Source of the DNA: Escherichia coli
Lineage (GTDB): Bacteria > Pseudomonadota > Gammaproteobacteria > Enterobacterales > Enterobacteriaceae
Reading direction: 5' to 3' (one strand)
Length of the DNA stretch: 64,000 nucleotides
Assembly: GCF_001677475.2 (NCBI RefSeq)
Contig: NZ_CP015229.1
Positions 8,695 through 49,732 of the stretch are shown here, in pieces. Below the pieces are notes generated by a model. It was not told the origin of the DNA. It saw only the letters and a list, made by a program, of their open reading frames with translations, and ran no database searches. The position numbers and the translations under genes were made by a program. Numbering within the stretch: the first letter of the stretch is position 1; each line of letters starts with the position of its first letter.

Positions 8695-9244
8695 TGACCA
8701 GTCCCGTCAGGCAAAGCTGGCGTTCTTTTTCACGGCGAATCTTTAAACCTCGCAGGGGCACGCCGTTACTGTTCACGAAATCAGGGAGATGGTTACACAT
8801 ATTCACCCATTCCCCTTTCTGCGCCCACTTGTGGATGGACGTTTCAACTCGCATGCCTCGCGCTTTGCTGTAGTAGGTCCGTAAGCTATTGCATCCCATA
8901 TTGAATGCCGCGCTTGTCATTGCACTGAAGGCATTATCGGGCATGTCTTTGCCCCGGAAGTGCTGATTAATACAGCGTTCAGCGATCAGGATATTCTTTT
9001 CCCAATCAGCGGCGATTTGCTGGTCTGTTTTTCGCACACCCGGCGTTACCCCGTGTGTATTACCGATCCCGTCAGTCCATACCCCCGCCGGGCACATGTA
9101 TGGATCACGTCGGCAACCTTCAGCGTTTCCGATAAGCTCAAGCCCCGCCTGGTTGGTTCGCACATTGCCATTACCCATCACGATGGTAATCATCACCGCG
9201 ATAGCGCAAATTGCACCGCCTCCTGCGGCTGTTTTTCCCTTCAT
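8687..9244 (-). CDS. lyz: SAR endolysin (T4-lysozyme-like muramidase with N-terminal signal-anchor-release segment), 185 aa
   Basis: Track ORF trimmed to internal ATG behind a GAGG RBS; N-terminal Gly/Ala-rich hydrophobic SAR segment (AAGGGAICAIAVMITIVMG) followed by catalytic Glu/Asp/Thr motifs (GNAEGC, RRDPY, WTDGIGNT); length equals P1 Lyz. Confidence 0.85.
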   Translation of the reverse strand: MKGKTAAGGGAICAIAVMITIVMGNGNVRTNQAGLELIGNAEGCRRDPYMCPAGVWTDGIGNTHGVTPGVRKTDQQIAADWEKNILIAERCINQHFRGKDMPDNAFSAMTSAAFNMGCNSLRTYYSKARGMRVETSIHKWAQKGEWVNMCNHLPDFVNSNGVPLRGLKIRREKERQLCLTGLVNE

Positions 9245-9413: not shown

Positions 9414-10046
9414 GTGGCACAACGCGGTGTAAACAAAGTCATCCTGATTGGTACCCTGGGGCAAGACCCGGAGATCAGGTATATACCAAATGGCGGCGCG
9501 GTCGGAAGACTCAGCATCGCAACGAATGAATCATGGCGCGACAAGCAAACGGACCAACAGAAAGAGCAAACAGAATGGCATAAAGTCGTTTTGTTCGGAA
9601 AACTTGCTGAAATTGCGAGTGAGTATTTACGAAAAGGTTCTCAGGTCTACATCGAAGGGAAACTTAAAACCCGTAAGTGGACAGATGACGCCGGTGTAGA
9701 ACGTTACACGACGGAAATTATCGTCAGCCAGGGCGGCACCATGCAAATGATCGGCGCTCGCCGTGACGATTCACAGTCCTCAAATGGCTGGGGGCAATCA
9801 AACCAACCTCAAAACCACCAGCAATACAGTGGTGGCGGTAAACCTCAGAGCAACGCCAATAACGAACCTCCAATGGACTTTGACGACGATATTCAAAAAC
9901 GACTGAAAGAAAAGCGGTGGTCCAGACGCCGACAAAAGCACGAACTCGCTAAAAAACGCCAAAGCTGGCAATGGCACGCGCTTTTCACGAAAAGAACACC
10001 CCGAGGCATTGCTTTCGCTGGTGGGAAAACATTCCTCCCCACCTGA
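9414..10046 (+). CDS. ssb: single-stranded DNA-binding protein with non-canonical C-terminus (basic 50-aa extension after DFDDDI instead of terminal PF)
   Basis: Track ORF; OB-fold region closely resembles E. coli/P1 SSB (VNKVILIG...TEWH...MDFDDDI); reading continues [14 protein letters not shown]... to a stop at 10046. Confidence 0.85.
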
Positions 10047-36865: not shown

Positions 36866-37310
<445 letters not shown>

Positions 37311-37400: not shown

Positions 37401-37916
37401 TCAACCTGCCTTTGCTTTTACGCTGTGTGAGAGAATACTTGCTTCAATTTCTTCCAAAATCTCTCTGACTTGCTCGTCGGACATATCAACCAACATCAAT
37501 GCAGCCAGGCGTTTACGACCCTCTAGTTGCAGCAGTTCTTGAGTATCTTTGTCCAATAAGCGTAGTACCGTTTCAACGCCTTTCCTTGCGAACATGCTGG
37601 TAAGAGCCTCTCGTTCTTCACTAGTAAGAAACGAGAGCATCTCAGTTAGCTGATCGCCTTGACTTAAACTGCTTTGTGATTCTTGTATTTTTGGTGGGTT
37701 TCCGTTGCCTGTTTTTAACCATTCAAGACTAACACCTTCACTTTCTGCAATGCGTACCAATATGCTTTCTCGAGGTTCTGGTGTGTTTCCCTTTTTAAAA
37801 TAGCTTTGTAACGTATTGATATTTATTCCCCAGGCTCTGGCTGCAGCACTTCTTGATGGATACCGTCTAATAAGATATGCCATGCGCTCTACGATAGGTT
37901 CTTTTGCTTGCTCCAT
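37401..37916 (-). CDS. Mu-like prophage repressor (c-like), N-terminal HTH
   Basis: Leftward gene divergent from ner/A/B; HTH-like segment RSAAARAWGININTLQSY. Confidence 0.6.
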   Translation of the reverse strand: MEQAKEPIVERMAYLIRRYPSRSAAARAWGININTLQSYFKKGNTPEPRESILVRIAESEGVSLEWLKTGNGNPPKIQESQSSLSQGDQLTEMLSFLTSEEREALTSMFARKGVETVLRLLDKDTQELLQLEGRKRLAALMLVDMSDEQVREILEEIEASILSHSVKAKAG

Positions 37917-38107: not shown

Positions 38108-38359
38108 ATGAGACAAAGAGAAGATCGCGACCGCGATTGGCCTTCGCTAAAGATTCAGCTGGCGCTCAAAGATAATGGGTGGTCTTCCTTCCGGGAGCTT
38201 TCACTCCATGCTGGTTATGCTCAGGATTCACTGAAAGCGGTAGTTCGTACACCGAACAAAAAATACGAACGCGTAATTTCTGACGCTATAGGTGTACCGC
38301 CAGAAATCATCTGGCCCAGCCGGTATCGTAACGATGGATTTATCAGGAAGGCGTCGTGA
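38108..38359 (+). CDS. ner: Ner-like DNA-binding protein
   Basis: Pattern DW...L...SL.ALS...GY...L......P...E.II...L...PE.IWPSRY matches Mu Ner/Nlp. Confidence 0.8.
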   Translation: MRQREDRDRDWPSLKIQLALKDNGWSSFRELSLHAGYAQDSLKAVVRTPNKKYERVISDAIGVPPEIIWPSRYRNDGFIRKAS

Positions 38360-38360
38360 T

Positions 38361-40457
38361 ATGCAGTTGTACGTTACCGCAAACGACTTGCTCGGCGTAC
38401 CAGGAATGCCAGTCACTGCAAAAGGTATCCGTCAGGCGTTACAGCGTTTTGCCCATGGGCGCAATGACGTTAGCCGCCGACGTGAAGGCACAAAAGCCAT
38501 TGAATACCACATCGATTGCCTGCCAGAGGTAACTCAAAGGGCACTGCGTGAACGCTATGTGGAACAGCTGGTGGCTACAGAGAACAATGTTTCTGAAGTG
38601 AAGGTTGTTACCAGGAAGGCTCGTAATCCTGATGCAGTCCAGGCAATCGAAGCATATCGCGGTTCTCCACAACTGATGGAAGAACGCCTGAACGCGTTGA
38701 CCGAAAACCAGCGCCGGGTATCTGAAGCAAGATCTGCGCTGGTGGTGGAAGTGCTGAGGCTGGAAAGAGACGGTGATCTCGGGCGACTGAAAGCCATTAA
38801 CTTTCTTGTCGAAAAAGCCCGTAAAGGTGAACTACCGGAACGCCTGCAACAGGCCGCAGTTAACGCCAATGCAAAACGTGGTGCTAATCGCACCATCAGT
38901 CGTGACCCACTTTATCAGTGGGTGCTGAAGTACAACCAGTCACAGAACGCCGCAGAACGGCTGCTGTTACTGGCACCAGGAAAACGCGACGAAATAAAAC
39001 CGGAGGAAATTAGCTGGCTACCTGAATTTCTGGCGCAGTATCGCCAGGCGAATGGCAGACCTATGTCAGAAGCCTACGAAGATTTTGTCGCGGAATGGCA
39101 GCGTCGCCATGCAGACGAACCCTACATGATAGAGGTGATGCCCTCTTACGATGTGGTTCGTTATGCCATGAAGAAATTGCCGGAAGTGGTGAAACAAAAA
39201 GGCCGTGTTACCGGCAGTGAATACCGTCAGCTTGAAGGATTCACCCGCCGCGACTGGACAGCTATGCCGGTGAATTATGTCTGGATTGGTGACGGTCACG
39301 GTATGAAGCTGAAATGTGCGCATCCGATCCACGGGCGTCCATTCTCACCAGAAGTCACGTTTGTGATCGACGGTGGAACCCGGTTTGTTGTTGGCTGGAG
39401 TCTTGATCTTGCCGAGAACGTTTTCGCCGTTGCCGGAGCGATACAGCACGGCATTCGCAACCACGGAAAACCGTTCCTGTATTACTCGGATAACGGTTCT
39501 GGTGAAACGGCTGACATGCTTGACAAAGAGGTCGTGGGTATTCTGCCCCGCCTGGGGATTAAACACCCAACAGGTATTGCCGGTAATCCACAGGGGCGCG
39601 GCATTATTGAACGCCTGAACCGGACACTGCCGATGCGTATAGCCAGGAGGTATCGCACCTATTTTGGCAAGGGTGCTGACCGGGAATCGTTGCGTGTACT
39701 TAACCGTGATCTGCGTTCAGCGTTTAACGCCCTGCAACAGGACAAGCCTCTGAACGACCGCCAGAAAGCTGCAATGCGCGAGCTACCATCGTGGGCGGAG
39801 CTTATTGAGGCTATTCGTGAAGGCGTGGAATGGTACAACAACCGCCCGCATTCTGAGCTGCCTATGAAACCGAACGGGCGGCATTACAGCCCGGCAGAGT
39901 TCAGAAAAAAACGCCTGGCAGAAGAAGACACCGAAATTGAGTGGCTGAGTGATCTTGAGCTGCGCGACATGTTCCGCCCGATGGTGGAGCGTCCGGTAAA
40001 ACGCTGTGAAATCAAATGGCTTGGCAATATTTATTACGCGCCGGAGCTGCGTGACGAACACGGTCGCAAAGTGCTTATCAGTTATGACATTCATGACGCC
40101 GAGCGAATTACGGTACGTCGCAAGGACGGCAGCTTTATCTGTGAGGCGATATGGAACGGCAATAAACGCGCAGCCTTCCCTGTCAGTGCGGAATATCACA
40201 AACAACAGCAGCGTATTAAAGGGATGCGCAAACGCGCTGAGGAAAAAATTCGCGATGCTGAAGATGAAGGTATTCAGATTCTGGAACACAAACAGGCTGA
40301 ACCCTGGCTGGATAATGTTTATCGCCCGGTTGGTAATGTGGTGGCCGTTCAGCAACCGGAATATGAAGAAGAGCATGACGAAGAATTTGAACGCGATTTC
40401 AGACTGGGGATGCAAAAACTTTTTGCCATGCAGGAAGAAGATGATCCGCTGGCCTGA
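38361..40457 (+). CDS. Mu-type DDE transposase A
   Basis: Track ORF 38292-40457 trimmed to the ATG; N-terminus parallels Mu A (PG.P.T..G......KGGKAIEY); about 700 aa. Confidence 0.85.
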   Translation: MQLYVTANDLLGVPGMPVTAKGIRQALQRFAHGRNDVSRRREGTKAIEYHIDCLPEVTQRALRERYVEQLVATENNVSEVKVVTRKARNPDAVQAIEAYRGSPQLMEERLNALTENQRRVSEARSALVVEVLRLERDGDLGRLKAINFLVEKARKGELPERLQQAAVNANAKRGANRTISRDPLYQWVLKYNQSQNAAERLLLLAPGKRDEIKPEEISWLPEFLAQYRQANGRPMSEAYEDFVAEWQRRHADEPYMIEVMPSYDVVRYAMKKLPEVVKQKGRVTGSEYRQLEGFTRRDWTAMPVNYVWIGDGHGMKLKCAHPIHGRPFSPEVTFVIDGGTRFVVGWSLDLAENVFAVAGAIQHGIRNHGKPFLYYSDNGSGETADMLDKEVVGILPRLGIKHPTGIAGNPQGRGIIERLNRTLPMRIARRYRTYFGKGADRESLRVLNRDLRSAFNALQQDKPLNDRQKAAMRELPSWAELIEAIREGVEWYNNRPHSELPMKPNGRHYSPAEFRKKRLAEEDTEIEWLSDLELRDMFRPMVERPVKRCEIKWLGNIYYAPELRDEHGRKVLISYDIHDAERITVRRKDGSFICEAIWNGNKRAAFPVSAEYHKQQQRIKGMRKRAEEKIRDAEDEGIQILEHKQAEPWLDNVYRPVGNVVAVQQPEYEEEHDEEFERDFRLGMQKLFAMQEEDDPLA

Positions 40458-40532: not shown

Positions 40533-41486
40533 ATGACTGATATTGATGATGTTTTCAACACTATTAATACGTTGATCAACGAGGGCGACAAGCCCCAGGA
40601 AGATATTGCTGATGAGGCCGGAATGTCTCCGGCAACACTCTCGGCTCTGCGTAAAGGAGAATACAAAGGCAATGTCGAAGGTATGCATGACAAATTACAG
40701 GAATGGTATCGGGTCTGGCAAAAAGGGCAGAATTTGTCAGGTGCCCCCGGCGTTGTGAAGACCCAGACATTTTGTGATTTGCATGAGCTGTTTAAAACAG
40801 TGCGCTCACTCGGGATTATCAGTGTTGTTGTTGGCGTACCGGGTGTCGGCAAAACTTTTGCTGCACGGGAATATTGCCGCAAGACAGCTAATGCCTGGAT
40901 GGTGACGCTTGCACCGGCACATTCGAGCGTAACGGAATGCCTCCTTGAAATAGCATATGCGCTGGAAATTAATAATCCGGGAAGAAATAAGGGGAATATA
41001 ACCCGCGCCATTCGCAGAAAACTGGGCGGTGGTAAAGAAACCAGTGGCCGTGTTAACCCCCTGCTGATTATTGATGAAGCTGATCACTTAAGTGTGGATG
41101 GTCTGGAGCAATTACGCGCCATTCAGGATGCTACTGGCGTGGGGATGGTTTTAATTGGCAACCCGAAACAGATGGCGGATGCCACCCGTCGTGGGACTGA
41201 TGAACTGGCTCGTTTGTTCAGCCGTTTTGCCATGACAAAACAACTGCGCAAAGTGAAAAAGACTGATGTGATGGCTGTAGCCAAAGCATGGGGAGTAACA
41301 CAGGAAGATGAGCTGGATCTGCTGATGAGGGTTGCCGAAAAGCCCGGGGGATTGCGTGTATTAACTCACACACTGAATCATGCGTGGCTGGCGGCGAAAG
41401 GTGCTGGTTCATCCCTGAATAAAAGTCACATAAAAGCGGCTTTTAAGGAGGCTTACAGCAACCCTAAGTTGCTGAACTGGCAGTAA
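40533..41486 (+). CDS. Mu B-type AAA+ target-DNA activator
   Basis: Walker A GVPGVGKT, Walker B LLIIDEADHL; directly after transposase. Confidence 0.85.
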   Translation: MTDIDDVFNTINTLINEGDKPQEDIADEAGMSPATLSALRKGEYKGNVEGMHDKLQEWYRVWQKGQNLSGAPGVVKTQTFCDLHELFKTVRSLGIISVVVGVPGVGKTFAAREYCRKTANAWMVTLAPAHSSVTECLLEIAYALEINNPGRNKGNITRAIRRKLGGGKETSGRVNPLLIIDEADHLSVDGLEQLRAIQDATGVGMVLIGNPKQMADATRRGTDELARLFSRFAMTKQLRKVKKTDVMAVAKAWGVTQEDELDLLMRVAEKPGGLRVLTHTLNHAWLAAKGAGSSLNKSHIKAAFKEAYSNPKLLNWQ

Positions 41487-43004: not shown

Positions 43005-43529
43005 ATGGCTAAACCAGCAAAACGAATCAGGAATGCCGCAGCAGCTTATGTTCCTCAATCCCGGGATGCCGTGGTGTGTGATATTCGCTGGATTGGTGAC
43101 CTGCAACGCGAAGCGGTACGACTTGAAACGGAAATGAATGACGCTATTGCTGAAATTACGGAGAAATACGCCTCACGGATTGCGCCGCTTAAAACCCGTA
43201 TTGAAACCCTTTCAAAAGGCGTTCAGGGGTGGTGTGAAGCGAACCGTGACGAACTGACGAACGGCGGCAAGGTGAAGACGGCCAACCTGGTAACCGGCGA
43301 TGTGTCATGGCGTCAGCGCCCACCATCGGTAAGTATTCGCGGTGTGGATGCGGTGATGGAAACGCTGGAGCGTCTTGGCCTGCAACGCTTTATTCGCACG
43401 AAACAGGAAATCAACAAGGAAGCGATTTTACTGGAACCGAAAGCGGTCGCAGGTGTTGCCGGAATTACAGTTAAATCGGGCATTGAAGATTTTTCTATTA
43501 TTCCGTTTGAACAGGAAGCCGGTATTTAA
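43005..43529 (+). CDS. gam: Gam host-nuclease inhibitor (Ku-like DNA end-binding protein), 174 aa
   Basis: Near-identical over most of its length to Mu Gam as recalled (MAKPAKRI ... IIPFEQEAGI). Confidence 0.9.
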   Translation: MAKPAKRIRNAAAAYVPQSRDAVVCDIRWIGDLQREAVRLETEMNDAIAEITEKYASRIAPLKTRIETLSKGVQGWCEANRDELTNGGKVKTANLVTGDVSWRQRPPSVSIRGVDAVMETLERLGLQRFIRTKQEINKEAILLEPKAVAGVAGITVKSGIEDFSIIPFEQEAGI

Positions 43530-44700: not shown

Positions 44701-45013
44701 TGCTGATTTAATGGCTGCAACCTTAGTTTCCAGTGGCATGTCAGAACAAAAGGTAAATGATTTTCTGGATAATGTCGTATACCAACACTATGAGCAGGCC
44801 AGAGAAAATTTAATTTCGGAAAAGCTCACGATGATTGCTGAATCATTAAGCCCTGCATGGATTATCGAAGAGTTGCGGGGAATCATTGCCAGCCATGATA
44901 AAGTGGCGGCAGTTGCCGCCCTCGATGTGCTACAGCGAATGAGTAAAGAGCTATTCAACACTGAATTAATTTTTAAATCCGGGGGACATAATGAGCCGCA
45001 CATCCCTGATTAA
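44678..45013 (+). CDS. hypothetical early protein
   Basis: Track ORF. Confidence 0.4.
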   Translation: MKIQMITDADLMAATLVSSGMSEQKVNDFLDNVVYQHYEQARENLISEKLTMIAESLSPAWIIEELRGIIASHDKVAAVAALDVLQRMSKELFNTELIFKSGGHNEPHIPD

Positions 45014-45542
45014 ATTAATTCATGTTGCCCGTCGGGAGTTGCAACTCGACGATGACACTTACCGCGCCTTTCTGGTGCAGTGCACAGGCAAGACCAGTTG
45101 CCGCGAGCTGACCTTCGCACAACTGGAACTGGTGCTCGATGCCATGAAAGAGCGCGGTTTTAAGAAGCAGAAAAAACATCCCCGCCGTCGCTTTAAGGGG
45201 CATGTCACACCACGCGAGAAGATTTACAAAATCTGGCAGCAGATGTTTCTTGATGGTTTCGTCTCCGATATCAGCGACGCCGCGCTGGACAAATACGTTG
45301 AACGCCTGACGGCCAGACGTAATGGCGGTCAGGGTGTTTCCACGCTGGTCTGGTGTCACGGGGAATCGTTGCAGGTTGTGCTCGAAACGCTCAAGCAGTG
45401 GCACATGCGCTGCATCCGGGAAGCCTTTGCCCGACATGGTGTGCCGTTACCTGCAAGCCCATCCGGGCGGGAACTACGCGGATATGATGCACTGACCAGT
45501 GCATATGCCCGCGCACGAAACAGCGGGAGAATTGCTGTATGA
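44991..45542 (+). CDS. GemA-like regulatory protein (DUF1018-like)
   Basis: Position immediately before the Mor/C-like gene; size. Confidence 0.5.
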   Translation: MSRTSLIKLIHVARRELQLDDDTYRAFLVQCTGKTSCRELTFAQLELVLDAMKERGFKKQKKHPRRRFKGHVTPREKIYKIWQQMFLDGFVSDISDAALDKYVERLTARRNGGQGVSTLVWCHGESLQVVLETLKQWHMRCIREAFARHGVPLPASPSGRELRGYDALTSAYARARNSGRIAV

Positions 45543-45988
45543 AACAGATGAAAGAGCAGGATTTATTCGAAGACCTTCGGGACGACAGCGTTCTGGAATA
45601 TCTTCATGATTACCAGGAAAACACCGCTTATCCGGCGTTACTTTCTGAACTGAACGCACTGCTGCGTAAAGAGCTGGCCCGGATTGGCGCAGACCCTGCT
45701 CATTCCCTTGAGCTGGTTGTGGCGATTTGTCGCCATATCGGCGGGATGCAGGTTTATGTTCCGAGGGGGAATATTCTGGAGAATCTTGTCCGGGATATGC
45801 GTATCTGGCGTGATTTTAACGGTCATAATATTCCTGAACTGGTTCAGCGTTACGGGGTGACGTATAAAACCGTCTACAAGGCCATCAAACGGATGCGACG
45901 TCTGGAGCGCAATAAATACCAGCCGGATTTGTTTTACCCCTCCCCGAACCTGCCTCACCCCGTTCGTCGTCCACCACGACGCCCTTAA
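45539..45988 (+). CDS. Mor/C-family transcriptional activator
   Basis: C-terminal HTH with preceding Gly-rich turn, position before the lysis/late block. Confidence 0.65.
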   Translation: MKQMKEQDLFEDLRDDSVLEYLHDYQENTAYPALLSELNALLRKELARIGADPAHSLELVVAICRHIGGMQVYVPRGNILENLVRDMRIWRDFNGHNIPELVQRYGVTYKTVYKAIKRMRRLERNKYQPDLFYPSPNLPHPVRRPPRRP

Positions 45989-45993
45989 TCAAT

Positions 45994-46018
45994 GAAGCCG
46001 GTAAATCCGGCTTTTTTT
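45994..46018 (+). terminator. intrinsic terminator after the early operon
   Basis: GAAGCCGG-TAAA-TCCGGCTT followed by a run of seven T. Confidence 0.75.
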
Positions 46019-46073
46019 ATGCCTCCGGCACCATGAAGCAGACCACGTTTAAATCTGCTTCACAGGTGCTTTT

Positions 46074-46670
46074 ATGGAAAATCAAAAATTCTCCCCGGCC
46101 TTTGAACATGCGCTGAATTTCATTCTGCGTCCCGATATCGAAGGCGTCTATGCCAATGACCCCACTGACCGTGGCGGTGAAACCAAATACGGCATTTCTG
46201 ACCGCCGCGACGGTGTGACTGACGGCAAAACCGATGTCAACGGCGACGGCAAACCGGATACCCGCATCAGGGATTTAACCCGCGAACAGGTTGCTCAGAT
46301 TTACTGGCGCGATTACTGGCTGCCTGCCGGATGTGACCAGTGGCCTGATGGCGTGGCGATGTTTGTGTTCGATGCGGCGGTTCAGCATGGCGTTAAAAAA
46401 GCTATCAGGATTTTGCAGGAAGCCGCGGATGTGGATGCTGACGGCATCATCGGCCCCCGTACCCGTAAGGCCGTGAGCCTGTCCACCCCGGACTGGCTGC
46501 TGGCCCGCTGCATTGTCCGTCGTTCCCGCTTTTATGCCGACATCATCAAGTCCAAACCCGCCCAGGGCAAATACCTGAACGGCTGGTTTAACCGCATGGA
46601 AAAGCTGACCGACGCCTGTCTGGAAATCATCGATACCCCTCCAGGCATCATGTCCGCCACGCGGGGGTGA
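46074..46670 (+). CDS. endolysin, GH108-type muramidase with peptidoglycan-binding C-terminal region
   Basis: N-terminal motif ANDPTDRGGETKYGI typical of glycoside hydrolase family 108. Confidence 0.7.
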   Translation: MENQKFSPAFEHALNFILRPDIEGVYANDPTDRGGETKYGISDRRDGVTDGKTDVNGDGKPDTRIRDLTREQVAQIYWRDYWLPAGCDQWPDGVAMFVFDAAVQHGVKKAIRILQEAADVDADGIIGPRTRKAVSLSTPDWLLARCIVRRSRFYADIIKSKPAQGKYLNGWFNRMEKLTDACLEIIDTPPGIMSATRG

Positions 46671-46897
46671 TATGGGCAAAGGCTGGGATGCCTCTCTGAA
46701 AGCCGGGCGGCGCGACCGCCTGCGTCAGGAGGTTCTGCACCGCATGGCCGGAGGTCCGCCCCCGAAACCGCTGGACTATACCGGCCATGACGGCACACAC
46801 GCCAGCTACTACATGCGTGGCTGGAACTCCGTGGATACACGGGACATTTTCTGGCAGTGCCAGAAGTACAGGGAAAAATTCAATGTGGAAAAAGGTT

Positions 46898-47308
46898 ATG
46901 AACAAAATTTTAAAACTGTGTGACTGGCTGATTTGTTCCCGACTGATGAGAACCCCATGGCCGCTGGCCGGACTGACGCTCTGTATGTTCATCATCAGCA
47001 TGTTATGTGGCTGGCGATCGTTCGTGTTGATGTTGTTGTCCTTTGCCGGGGTGGTGTTGTTTTCATACAGCGCAAGCCTCGGGAATGTGCCATTTCGCCT
47101 GCTGCCTGAGGTCCGTTACCGGGCTTTTGGTCGCCACATCATCGTGTGGTCATGGGTGGTCTGGGCGCTGGGATATTTCTGCTGCGTCTTCAGCACGCTG
47201 ATGATGATGTCACCGGCACACCCGGTGTTCTGGCTGTGTGGTGGCGGTTGCGGCGCTCTGCTCTGTCTTCAGCGTTATCTGTATGGAGGTTTCCCGTGGA
47301 TCCGTTAA
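46898..47308 (+). CDS. putative holin / lysis membrane protein
   Basis: Track ORF trimmed to the ATG behind a GTGGAAAAAGG RBS; multiple transmembrane segments. Confidence 0.4.
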   Translation: MNKILKLCDWLICSRLMRTPWPLAGLTLCMFIISMLCGWRSFVLMLLSFAGVVLFSYSASLGNVPFRLLPEVRYRAFGRHIIVWSWVVWALGYFCCVFSTLMMMSPAHPVFWLCGGGCGALLCLQRYLYGGFPWIR

Positions 47309-47904
47309 CCCTTTCAGGCATCGCCTCCGTTCTGCTGAAAGCCGGGCCGGGGCTGATTCGTTCCGTCGGGCGCTGGTTTGGTGGCGGTACATCTGCCGCC
47401 GCTGACTCGGTGGCCGGTATGGTGGAAAGCGTCCGGGAAAGCCTGCCGGTGGCTGAACAGCAGCGCGTTCTGGAACAGAAGATGGCGATGTTACCACCGG
47501 AACAACAGATACAACTGGAAACCCTGAAAATTCAGCTGCAACAACTGGAGGTGGAGCGGCAGAAGCTGGTGCTGGCTGACCAGCAGGCCGCACACCACGA
47601 ACAGCAGGAAACCATCCGCAATGGTGACAACGCCACGGACAGCTATGTGCGCCAGACGCGCCCGCTGCTGGCCCGCCTTTCCTGTTACAGCGGTCTGGCC
47701 TATGTGCTGTTGCTCTCCTGCGGCCAGATTGCCGGAGCCGTTGCCGGTGCCAGAGGTATCACGCTGCATATGCCAACACCGGACTGGGATATCACGCTGA
47801 TGTTGCTTACCCCTGCGCTGGGCTATCTCGGCGTGCGAACCCTTGACGGCTTTGCCCGTTACAGCAAATCAAGCCGTCACAAAATGTCTGCGGGGCTGAA
47901 ATGA
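47296..47904 (+). CDS. membrane protein with coiled-coil, possible spanin-like lysis component
   Basis: GTG after a GGAGG RBS; N- and C-terminal hydrophobic segments flank a Gln/Glu-rich coil. Confidence 0.35.
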   Translation: MDPLTLSGIASVLLKAGPGLIRSVGRWFGGGTSAAADSVAGMVESVRESLPVAEQQRVLEQKMAMLPPEQQIQLETLKIQLQQLEVERQKLVLADQQAAHHEQQETIRNGDNATDSYVRQTRPLLARLSCYSGLAYVLLLSCGQIAGAVAGARGITLHMPTPDWDITLMLLTPALGYLGVRTLDGFARYSKSSRHKMSAGLK

Positions 47905-48128
47905 CCGATGAAATCGACCGCATCAGTGAAGTGGTTCTGAACGAGCGTCAGTGCGTCGTTAAAGCCTGGCAGACGCGGACAAAAGAAGCGCCCCACAGTC
48001 GGGGCTTCTGCAATGACTGCGGGAACGTTATTCCGGCACAGCGCCTTGCGGCGCTGCCGGATGTGGTGACCTGTATTGACTGCCAGCAGATGCGTGAGCG
48101 CAGGAGGAAGACATGTCCTGGGAAGTGA
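47901..48128 (+). CDS. TraR/DksA-family C4 zinc-finger protein
   Basis: CNDCG ... CIDCQ spacing. Confidence 0.6.
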   Translation: MTDEIDRISEVVLNERQCVVKAWQTRTKEAPHSRGFCNDCGNVIPAQRLAALPDVVTCIDCQQMRERRRKTCPGK

Positions 48129-48418
48129 TCCGGGCCAACTGGCCCATTTTATGGGCGCTGTTGATGACAGCGATAAATTTGCTTCAGCTGATTCTGGCAA
48201 AGACTTACGTCAAACGCGAAGAGTTTGATTCGCTGCGTTCCCGTGTGTCGGTGATGGAAGGTCTGGTGAATCAGCTCCCCGACCGCAATGAATTTCACCG
48301 CCTGCAACTGGATATCAGCAACCTGCGGGGCGAAATCCGGGAACTGGGGCCATCCATACGCCAGGTTTCCCGCATCAGTGATTTGTTATTAGAGAACGAG
48401 TTAAAGGTAAAAAATTAA
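48113..48418 (+). CDS. small membrane protein
   Basis: Track ORF, N-terminal TM helix. Confidence 0.4.
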   Translation: MSWEVIRANWPILWALLMTAINLLQLILAKTYVKREEFDSLRSRVSVMEGLVNQLPDRNEFHRLQLDISNLRGEIRELGPSIRQVSRISDLLLENELKVKN

Positions 48419-48711
48419 TGGCGATGAAAGAGATCCTCACTGAAGACCGTCGTCTGGTGTTGCTGCGTTCCCTGCTGGACTGTGGCGACAGCGCGAATGA
48501 ATCCGTGTTGCAGACCTGCCTTCAGGCTTATGGTCATAAGGTATCCCGTGATGTGGTGCGCACCCAGCTTGCATGGCTTCGCGAGCAGGGGTTGGTTCGT
48601 CTGTCTGATGTGGGCGGCTGTTACGTGGCTGAAATCACCGGCAGCGGCGAGGATGTGGCAAACGGCCTGTCCAGCGTTCCGGGCGTTAAAAAACCCCGTG
48701 CGAGGGGCTGA
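48418..48711 (+). CDS. hypothetical protein
   Basis: Track ORF. Confidence 0.4.
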   Translation: MAMKEILTEDRRLVLLRSLLDCGDSANESVLQTCLQAYGHKVSRDVVRTQLAWLREQGLVRLSDVGGCYVAEITGSGEDVANGLSSVPGVKKPRARG

Positions 48712-48713
48712 GC

Positions 48714-49013
48714 ATGGCCCGAAAACTGAAGCCGTTAAGTCGCGGAGAACGGGCCGTCGTGCGGCAACTGGCGTACTGCCTTGTGCTGGCAGATATTGAG
48801 CAAAACGCCATTGTCCGTGCATACGAACAACAGACCGGAAAGCCCTGGAGCCCGGATGCACCGGACAGCCCCATGAAACGCTTTCTGCGGTCATCACCGG
48901 CATGTGCGCGGCTGTGGAAGCTGCTGGGTAAGGATATCCGGTCCGTTCGCGAAGAAATATACGCCGGTCTGAAAACACCGGGAACTGAAGACGGGGGCCG
49001 TCGTGAACCGTAA
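48714..49013 (+). CDS. hypothetical protein
   Basis: Track ORF. Confidence 0.4.
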   Translation: MARKLKPLSRGERAVVRQLAYCLVLADIEQNAIVRAYEQQTGKPWSPDAPDSPMKRFLRSSPACARLWKLLGKDIRSVREEIYAGLKTPGTEDGGRREP

Positions 49014-49129
49014 AAAGAATCCGATAAGTAAAGCGTCCCGTGATGAACTCCGCCGTCTGGCGCACAACCTGACATGGCGGGAAATCCAGAGCGGCGCGCT
49101 GAAATCTGCATACGAAAGTTTACAGCGTA

Positions 49130-49732
49130 GTGAGCAACAGGAGGGCAAACATGGAAAATGAACAACGCCCCACCCGTGGCCGTCTTTCCAAAGTGGATTT
49201 ACTCCCGGACAGCATCCGGGAGCAGTTGCATCAGATGCTGCGGGAAAAGCGGCACACGCAGGAAGAAATCCGCGAAGCCATCAACGCCCTGATTGACGAA
49301 CACAACCTGCCGGAAGAGATGCAGTTAAGCCGGACGGGTTTAAACCGTTATGCCAGCCGCATGGAAAAAGTCGGGGCCAAAATCCGCGCCTCCCGCGAAA
49401 TGGCCGAAGTCTGGGCGGCAAAGCTGGGTTCCGCGCCAACATCAGACGTCGGCAGGCTGCTGATGGAGTTTGTAAAAACGCTGGCCTTTGAAACGTCCAT
49501 GTCGATGGCAGAAGACGACAAACCTGTAGCACCAAAGGCGCTGGGGCAACTGGCGCTGGTTGCCCAGCGTCTGGAAGCGGCAGCCATGACCAGCCATAAA
49601 CGCGAGAAAGCGATCCGCGATGCGTTTGCACAGGAGATGGCTGAGAAAACCGAAGAGCTGGTCAGAACGGGTGGTCTGTCAGGCGGTGCGGCTGACACCA
49701 TCAAACGAGACATTCTGGGGATTAGCGCATGA
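49130..49732 (+). CDS. putative terminase small subunit (Mu gp27-like position)
   Basis: Immediately upstream of and overlapping the large terminase. Confidence 0.5.
   Translation: MSNRRANMENEQRPTRGRLSKVDLLPDSIREQLHQMLREKRHTQEEIREAINALIDEHNLPEEMQLSRTGLNRYASRMEKVGAKIRASREMAEVWAAKLGSAPTSDVGRLLMEFVKTLAFETSMSMAEDDKPVAPKALGQLALVAQRLEAAAMTSHKREKAIRDAFAQEMAEKTEELVRTGGLSGGAADTIKRDILGISA

Follow-up and report, generated by a model that had tools for sequence, protein, structure and literature searches.

A predicted Mor-dependent promoter overlaps the terminator between the activator and GH108 endolysin genes of a Mu-like Escherichia coli prophage and recurs before its head genes

The window analysed here is a stretch of 64,000 nucleotides of Escherichia coli DNA (RefSeq assembly GCF_001677475.2, contig NZ_CP015229.1), and a Mu-like transposable prophage spans it from about position 37155 to its end. 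The region of interest is the junction between the early genes and the lysis genes of this prophage. A first-pass annotation had placed there a single Mor/C-type activator gene, a terminator and a gene for a GH108 endolysin (45539-46670), and Pfam, PHROG and a terminator scan agree with that order; both open reading frames have the coordinates given there. Its description of Mu as a phage with separate mor and C genes and a T4-lysozyme-type endolysin is borne out by the Mu gene order, gemA-mor-gp18-gp19-gp20-C-lys, and by the Pfam family of Mu Lys, PF00959. The features of the junction are the following.

44991..45542, + strand: GemA (Mu gp16) homolog, 81% identical to Mu GemA (Pfam GemA, 2.1e-31)
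45539..45988, + strand: Mor/C-family activator of 149 amino acids (aa), ortholog of Mu Mor (Pfam Mor PF08765, E=3.6e-30)
45991..46006, + strand: predicted Mor-binding dyad AATGA-AGCCGG-TAAAT, a gapless match to Mu 9173-9188
45994..46018, + strand: terminator-like hairpin GAAGCCGG-TAAAT-CCGGCTTT followed by seven T residues (T7), from the terminator scan; overlaps the dyad
46029..46034, + strand: predicted -10 hexamer CACCAT, 22 nt past the dyad
46035..46062, + strand: inverted repeat GAAGCAGA-n11-TCTGCTTC (-10.6 kcal/mol), directly after the -10 and ending 2 nt before the Shine-Dalgarno (SD) sequence
46064-46068: SD AGGTG of the GH108 gene
46074..46670, + strand: GH108 muramidase with a C-terminal PG_binding_3 domain, 198 aa (Pfam; PDB relatives 2IKB, 2IS5, 7DNP and 6V40)

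The activator scores 104.6 bits against PF08765 (gathering cutoff 24.9), with residues 31-131 covering positions 3-107 of the 107 in the profile, and it matches PHROG 532 ("late transcriptional activator") at 5e-41. It is assigned as an ortholog of Mor and not of C because it is 63% identical to Mu Mor and 32% identical to Mu C, because it occupies the slot after gemA with the same overlap as in Mu (its ATG at 45539 overlaps the gemA stop at 45542), and because the recognition-helix region is near-identical, TVYKAIKRMRR here and TVYKAIRRMRR in Mor. Residues 94-121, which give sub-threshold matches to HTH_28 and HTH_23, align with the helix-turn-helix of Mor and C. The alignment also reveals an N-terminal EQDLF and a C-terminal QPDLF followed by a Pro/Arg-rich tail of 17 residues; the QPDLF and the tail are absent from Mu Mor. 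Late transcription by MuC requires two clamp-binding motifs, QHDLF and QPDLF, Mu Mor has the N-terminal DLF only, and the clamp-binding motifs of the family are an N-terminal x[D/E][L/M]F and a C-terminal QPDLF (Ho and Harshey, PMC12867686). Predicted clamp motifs together with the DNA-reading region of Mor would fit a protein that does the job of C, although this combination is suggestive only.

A small Mor/C profile detected no second homolog in the window (translated in six frames), in the complete E. coli STEC1575 prophage (97.8% identical across this region) or in the first 18 kb of Klebsiella phage Kp4866-3, a deposited genome. The same profile found two genes each in Mu and in the Yersinia Muvirus vB_YpM_5, its positive controls, and one each in the window, STEC1575 and Kp4866-3. 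A C gene within an operon driven by the middle promoter Pm, the mark of a three-tier cascade, is likewise missing from the window, the complete STEC1575 prophage and these 18 kb of Kp4866-3.

The element that follows the activator gene folds as a hairpin (45994-46014, then T7) of -12.6 kcal/mol (z=-3.2), with an 8-bp stem containing 5 G-C pairs. The sequence after the activator gene, AATGAAGCCGGTAAATCCGGCTTTTTTT..., aligns with the sequence after mor in Mu, AGTAAAGCCGGTTAATCCGGCTTTTTTT..., without a gap through the dyad, the T-run and the -10, so that CACCAT falls on the Mu Pm -10 TATCCT. The Mor site has been published as a 16-bp dyad from -51 to -36, in which two 5-bp repeats flank a G/C-rich hexamer (Howe laboratory; PMC4390567, PMC4287176). 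Mu positions were numbered from the curated Mu record of Pm (9163-9233) and the published G at -57, which falls on a G when +1 is 9224. The Mu dyad reconstructed from these published coordinates, and checked against the published -57 G, reads AGTAA-AGCCGG-TTAAT, which is the left arm plus the loop of the hairpin. The Mu equivalent of the hairpin is an annotated terminator (9179-9200). The hairpin and T7 that the first-pass annotation called a terminator are there and probably end the early transcript, like the post-mor terminator of Mu, but the element is not a terminator only: it is the homolog of the Mor-dependent promoter Pm and most likely the activator's own promoter. Transcription from it is predicted to start near 46042.

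The first-pass annotation had suggested a search for activator sites upstream of the late operons. This search yielded predicted dyads before the GH108 gene (site 1) and before the head protease gene (site 2), where the features are these.

53726..53741, + strand: second predicted Mor dyad AGTGA-AGCCGG-TAAAT, an exact second copy of the core, between the genes for the minor head protein and the protease
53729..53753, + strand: second terminator-like hairpin plus T7, overlapping the second dyad (-12.8 kcal/mol, z=-3.9)
53764..53769, + strand: predicted head-operon -10 CATACT, with the 22-nt spacing of site 1 and Mu Pm; kept as CACACT/CATACT at 22-23 nt in sequences that have lost the hairpin
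53772-53794: inverted repeat CCGTCG-n11-CGACGG

The exact core GCCGGTAAATCCGGC recurs just once more in the window, at 53732, and transcription from site 2 is predicted to start near 53777, upstream of the protease ATG at 53803. Site 2 occupies the position of the C-dependent promoter PI of Mu. Alignment of the pre-protease gap of Mu, the window and Kp4866-3 places gyrase-site-like repeats in all three and shows that the core is homologous downstream (Mu CGCAAACTGAC...GACATG, window CGCATACTGAC...GACATG), whereas upstream of the -10 the window has a Pm-type dyad and Mu a different sequence. What precedes the head operon is a Pm-type dyad and not a C-type site. The same two copies of the box are present in STEC1575; Kp4866-3 has the first copy and a degenerate second one, GGGAAAGCGGTTAATCCACTTTC...GACACT, before its protease gene. 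The gyrase-site-like repeats lie at 53640-53725, just upstream of the second box, and resemble the region of the Mu central strong gyrase site (GGCGTTTTTGAAGGGGTTTTGAAGGGGG, compared with ACGGGATTTTTAAACCGGTATTTAACGG in Mu); they are in the same place in Mu and Kp4866-3.

To place the two sites in a wider sample, IMG/VR was scanned for the 22-mer core of the box. There were 113 instances on 89 contigs, about 85 in the order Mor, box, GH108 and about 25 in the order minor head protein, box, protease, and the spacing between the two types is typically 7.6-7.8 kb, as in the window. Flanks anchored on the box (72 distinct lysis-type, 16 head-type) are conserved near background upstream of it. Beyond the bases fixed by the search, conservation is high at -51 A (100%), -21 G (94%), -19 C (98%), -12 A (98%), -8 T (97%) and -7 G (95%); -12 and -8 are positions 2 and 6 of the mapped -10 hexamer of Mu. 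All nine contigs that have the head region and lack the exact 22-mer carry a degenerate version of it, with the dyad AGTGA-AGCCGG-TWAAT-CC and a CACACT or CATGCT hexamer at 22-23 nt. In these and in Kp4866-3 the right arm of the hairpin and the T-run are gone, and the dyad and hexamer are kept, which argues that the conserved function is that of an activator site and promoter, not termination. Activator type and layout go together: a Mu-type Mor occurs with C and Mu Lys in 3/3 loci with enough DNA, and a window-type or other Mor occurs with GH108, and with neither C nor Mu Lys, in 22/22 informative loci. Mu has a single site, Pm.

These observations lead to a proposed two-tier cascade, to which a probability of about 0.72 is attached, in which the Mor ortholog would switch on the late genes directly, compared with the three tiers of Mu. 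The early operon ends with gemA and the single Mor ortholog, and the adjoining hairpin and T-run would stop early transcription. The Mor ortholog would bind the left arm and loop of that hairpin as its dyad, whose centre is about 43 bp upstream of a promoter that has no -35 element; Mor itself acts at a dyad centred at -43.5 of such a promoter. There the activator would recruit sigma-70 RNA polymerase to the lysis and packaging operon, which starts with a soluble GH108 endolysin, and it would act likewise at the near-identical site 2 before the head protease gene. The proposed cascade has no middle operon and no C protein. With the dyad and -10 conserved even where the terminator half is lost, and with both sites in C-less phages but one in Mu, the two-tier cascade is the best explanation.

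Other accounts of the same locus were considered. The hairpins could be intrinsic terminators or insulators and nothing else, with the late genes switched on by the zinc-finger protein, the gp26-like protein or a host factor. Each of the two elements does make a good hairpin-plus-T7 terminator, the Mu counterpart carries a terminator annotation, and a zinc-finger protein and a gp26 homolog are indeed encoded in the first late operon; the TraR-like gene, however, lies downstream of site 1, so its product cannot start that operon. This account is also hard to reconcile with the gapless homology of the element to an experimentally mapped Mor-dependent promoter, with the peak of conservation at two key -10 positions, and with the ten independent head-site sequences (nine contigs and Kp4866-3) in which the dyad and a -10 at 22-23 nt persist although the right arm and T-run are gone, and it is considered unlikely. 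A similarly low probability is given to the idea that GH108 is an accessory gene, as in vB_YpM_5, and that the real endolysin is elsewhere or missing. In vB_YpM_5 and two IMG/VR Muvirus contigs, mor, Pm and GH108 do occur together with C and a Mu-type Lys. No Mu Lys homolog was found in the window or in 22/22 C-less loci, though, and no other muralytic domain in the scanned open reading frames (ORFs) after GH108; no further lysozyme is annotated in STEC1575, the family is labelled endolysin in PHROG 315, and genes for membrane proteins and a DUF2730 protein follow, as in Mu-like lysis cassettes.

It is very improbable that the layout is a product of decay, in which a Mu-type prophage deleted gp19-gp20-C-Plys-lys and is no longer a working phage. 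A 1-bp deletion does shift the frame of the head protease gene in this copy, and the prophage, which lies in a plasmid, is truncated by the window end. The C-less layout is nevertheless kept in 22/22 viral contigs that are informative and in Kp4866-3, a deposited phage genome, and 50 complete E. coli genomes have it with their annotated genes intact; the matching second Mor site at the head operon would not arise by simple deletion, and the backbone is not Mu-type at all.

Several points weigh against the two-tier cascade itself. Activator binding, start sites and Mor dependence are all inferred from sequence. The site-1 -10 CACCAT matches TATAAT at 3/6 positions, and a generic sigma-70 scan of 45000-49500 found no promoter, a result that is expected and uninformative for promoters without a -35. 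For the last ~12 kb of the prophage, which lie beyond the end of the window, the absence of a second activator rests on the 97.8%-identical relative STEC1575. In the IMG/VR survey the search pattern dictated the central 22 bases of the box, so that 100% conservation there is by construction, and the contigs are related, so that the conservation percentages overstate the independent evidence. The frameshift in the protease gene means that this prophage copy may be non-functional. Finally, a position-weight scan, which was trained on those same sites, gave only two strong sites in the window, compared with four late promoters in Mu, and these two do not account for the control of the tail and com/mom genes. 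A weak candidate for a third site lies beyond the window in STEC1575 (L001 39322-39385) with a score of 19, near chance level, compared with 36-38. This candidate reads AGGGAAAACGGTAAATCT, is followed by TATTAT at 23 nt and lies inside the baseplate gene block of STEC1575; it is a possible counterpart of Mu PP. Upstream of com in STEC1575 no clear dyad was found.

The likeness to Mu is unevenly distributed over the prophage. Protein identity to Mu is 35% for ner, 25% for A and 41% for B; it rises to 78-92% from kil to gp11, is 81% for gemA, 63% for mor and 69% for gp18, and falls to 25-50% for the head and tail proteins of the late genes. Mu c, gp19, gp20, C, lys, gp23, gp24 and gp25 have no match in the prophage, and gp12-gp15 are absent. 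Gam had been described as almost identical to Mu Gam, and it is 92% identical in protein and about 86% in DNA. Megablast matches to Mu and D108 are confined to Gam-gp11, at 86%, and the genome-wide nucleotide similarity to Mu that defines the genus Muvirus (Mu, D108, SfMu) is lacking. TerL is closest, at about 70% (67-70%), to the TerL of Kp4866-3, Shewanella MuM16-2 and the Vibrio martha 12B12 group, each of which has one Mor/C gene. This relationship, with the low identity to Mu, indicates that the backbone is that of a distant single-activator relative of Mu. The module exchange proposed in the first-pass annotation is therefore supported by a clearly mosaic gene-by-gene profile, but in the reverse direction: the kil-gemA early segment, which contains Gam, is the Mu-like, insert-like part, and the backbone is distant and not Mu-type. 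A second activator gene elsewhere in the prophage and a close D108 or Mu match across the region had been named as findings that would speak against exchange. Neither was seen, the former in the window, STEC1575 and the first 18 kb of Kp4866-3, the latter by megablast beyond Gam-gp11.

The resemblance to Mor and Pm of Mu lies in a Mor ortholog after gemA, the same AGCCGG spacer, A/T-rich half-sites, the T-run, the position of the -10 and the overlap with a terminator. The half-sites themselves differ, being AATGA/AGTGA and TAAAT in the prophage and AGTAA and TTAAT in Mu. Mu transcribes gp18-gp19-gp20-C from Pm and uses C to activate its four late promoters, whereas in the prophage the Pm-type promoter would act directly on the endolysin and packaging genes, with a second copy in place of the C-dependent PI. 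With Mu C, which acts at Plys, PI, PP and Pmom, the prophage activator shares its proposed direct role in lysis and head activation and the QPDLF motif, and its head promoter has a core and leader homologous to those of PI; it is only 32% identical to C, however, no C gene is present, and the upstream activator site is Pm-type.

One Mor/C gene per genome is also the rule in the single-activator Mu-like phages Kp4866-3, the Vibrio martha 12B12 group, MuM16-2, Burkholderia BcepMu and Haemophilus SuMu. Kp4866-3 has the same order of Mor, box and GH108 and a second dyad before the protease gene, and the published description of SuMu has gp16 and Mor, with a peptidoglycan hydrolase not of the Mu type at the lysis position. 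The activators of the Vibrio, Burkholderia and other phages are 30-39% identical to the 149-aa activator, which is itself much closer to Mu Mor, and the prophage differs from these phages also in its Mu-like kil-gemA segment with 78-92% protein identity. In vB_YpM_5, a GH108 gene that is 73% identical comes directly after gemA, mor and Pm, and a gp18 homolog is next. C and a GH24 signal-arrest-release (SAR) endolysin are encoded downstream in that phage, where the GH108 gene belongs to the middle operon; the lineage of the window has neither. In vB_YpM_5 (L004 4612-5395) and in the IMG/VR contigs L087 and L111, GH108 comes first in the middle operon and replaces gp18-gp20 of Mu. A GH108 gene right after Mor is therefore not peculiar to C-less phages, and GH108-carrying Muviruses with C and the GH24 SAR endolysin so encode two muralytic enzymes expressed at different times.

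The product of the GH108 gene matches Glyco_hydro_108 (PF05838, E=3.2e-23, 82.5 bits against a cutoff of 21.2) and PG_binding_3 (PF09374, 3.2e-17, 62.9 bits against 24.6), and it is unrelated to Mu Lys, which is of the T4-lysozyme type (PF00959). Its nearest solved relative is NMB1012 (PDB 2IKB, 5.5e-21; 2IKB/2IS5). In the alignment of its IEGVY with the HEGGY of 2IKB the Glu is conserved; we take the N-terminal Glu of the EGGY motif of GH108 to be catalytic. Residues ~42-63 (46185-46260) hold an Asp/Gly-rich insertion of about 12 residues, DGVTDGKTDVNGDGKPDT, relative to NMB1012; this insertion, which the vB_YpM_5 homolog shares, looks like a calcium-binding loop. The protein is soluble, with no SAR or signal segment and a maximum 19-residue hydropathy of 0.91, and since it lacks a hydrophobic N-terminal segment it should need a holin-type partner. 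It is the only recognised endolysin candidate among the scanned ORFs after its gene, and PHROG 315 places it in an endolysin family. These features suggest a working endolysin that would be released by a holin-type membrane protein encoded just downstream. The lysis and packaging block continues 3' of the gene, followed by head and tail genes, and begins as follows.

46672..46923, + strand: Mu gp18 homolog, 83 aa, 69% identical to gp18, the first gene of the Mu middle operon
46883..47308, + strand: 141-aa membrane protein with at least 3 transmembrane (TM)-like segments, a holin-type candidate by hydropathy, in the position of Mu gp19
47296..47904, + strand: 202-aa protein with one TM-like segment (PHROG 1544 at 1e-57)
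47901..48128, + strand: TraR/DksA-type zinc-finger protein (PF01258 at 6.5e-11)
48113..48418, + strand: DUF2730 protein with an N-terminal TM at residues 11-29 (PF10805 at 1.6e-29)
48418-48711: gp26-like winged-helix protein, 60% identical to Mu gp26

The 141-aa protein has no Pfam match and no tblastn similarity to Mu gp19. The 202-aa protein matches GTA_holin_3TM (PF11351) below threshold (20.6 bits, cutoff 24.8), and DUF2730 is the family of the Mu gp25 "releasin" (PMC9239132). A lipobox search of the + strand frames of 46600-49200 found no outer-membrane spanin. The N-terminal part of PHROG 2121 (284 positions) matches the 83-aa gp18 homolog and its C-terminal part the ORF at 47146-47904. 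The two appear to be one protein in some phages; here they are separate, and the 141-aa membrane ORF, in another frame, overlaps the 3' end of the former and the 5' end of the latter.

An inverted repeat that follows the -10 and ends just before the SD is present at every Pm-type promoter examined and at Mu PI (L007 ~9525-9549). Its pairing is kept in 18/18 diverse leaders, and its sequence differs from phage to phage and also from one promoter to the other within a phage. If transcription starts as in Mu Pm, the left arm, which lies between the -10 and the start, is missing from activator-initiated RNA. A hairpin that forms only in read-through RNA is known from the T4 lysozyme gene, an analogous device. 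Sequestration of the ribosome site in read-through RNA only is unsupported for the window, and the test of SD-AUG unpaired probability is unconvincing: the mean SD-to-AUG value is 0.36 in read-through RNA, 0.49 in RNA that starts at +1 and 0.43 when the upstream sequence is shuffled (p=0.09 against shuffled), and the window leader gives 0.46, 0.52 and 0.47, respectively. It is only a tentative and rather doubtful proposal that activator sites are swappable on conserved late cores, that a Mor dyad and terminator were grafted onto such cores so that three tiers became two, and that the repeat gates expression. In the gating part of this proposal, a hairpin present only in read-through RNA could leave the late genes expressible only from the activator-dependent start.

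After the MuB-type ATPase, the prophage genes follow the order kil, gp6, gp8 and gp9 homologs, Gam, gp11, GemA, Mor-family and GH108. Those with assigned coordinates to the left of GemA are listed here.

37401-37916, minus strand: repressor-like gene
38292-40457: Mu-type transposase
40533-41486: MuB-type ATPase
43005-43529: Gam

The likely left end of the prophage (37155-37300) begins TGACCAAGTAAATTATTCAAGATAA. The sequence TTCAAGATAA is repeated at ~37170 and ~37241, and TTCAAGATAG occurs at ~37292; they are probably the repeats that the transposase binds at the prophage end. On the left side of the prophage (1-37152) the DNA is plasmid-type and not chromosomal, and it matches the IncY P1-like phage-plasmids of E. 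coli, which are ~90-100 kb in size. Its matches fall in 526 places on plasmids and 14 on chromosomes, the best being pNADC1036IncYphage at 98.9%. The match breaks off inside the homolog of a 188-aa gene, of which 36866-37174 is a remnant, with the junction near 37153-37155, indicating that a P1-like phage-plasmid harbours the transposable prophage. Among the complete E. coli genomes of the collection, none has this junction. In the Mu I homolog, the head protease/scaffold gene (ATG 53803), 1 bp is missing from a G run at ~53914 relative to STEC1575 (CACC-GGCGCG here, CACCGGGCGCG there). The frameshift is either a homopolymer sequencing error or an inactivating mutation, and in the latter case this prophage copy would be defective.

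Of 5,426 complete E. coli genomes, 50 contain the Mor-GH108 junction, which RefSeq annotates in this form. Among relatives of Mu the layout is common and for the most part unremarkable. It has already been described that DUF2730 proteins of Mu-like phages are paired with diverse endolysins (PMC9239132). No description of a duplicated Pm-type site before head genes was found in a literature search that was incomplete. The value of these results lies mainly in annotation and comparison, and the general understanding of Mu-like phages is unchanged. The hairpin after mor in the widespread enterobacterial Mu-like prophages should be annotated as a promoter with an activator site and not just as a terminator. 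The pre-protease promoter would be a natural experiment on Mor/C specificity, in which one and the same core has a C site in Mu and a Mor site in the prophage, and the activator appears to join a Mor-type DNA-reading region to a C-type clamp-binding tail. A two-tier system of this kind would offer a simpler setting in which to study Mor versus C promoter specificity and the coupling of the clamp with late function.

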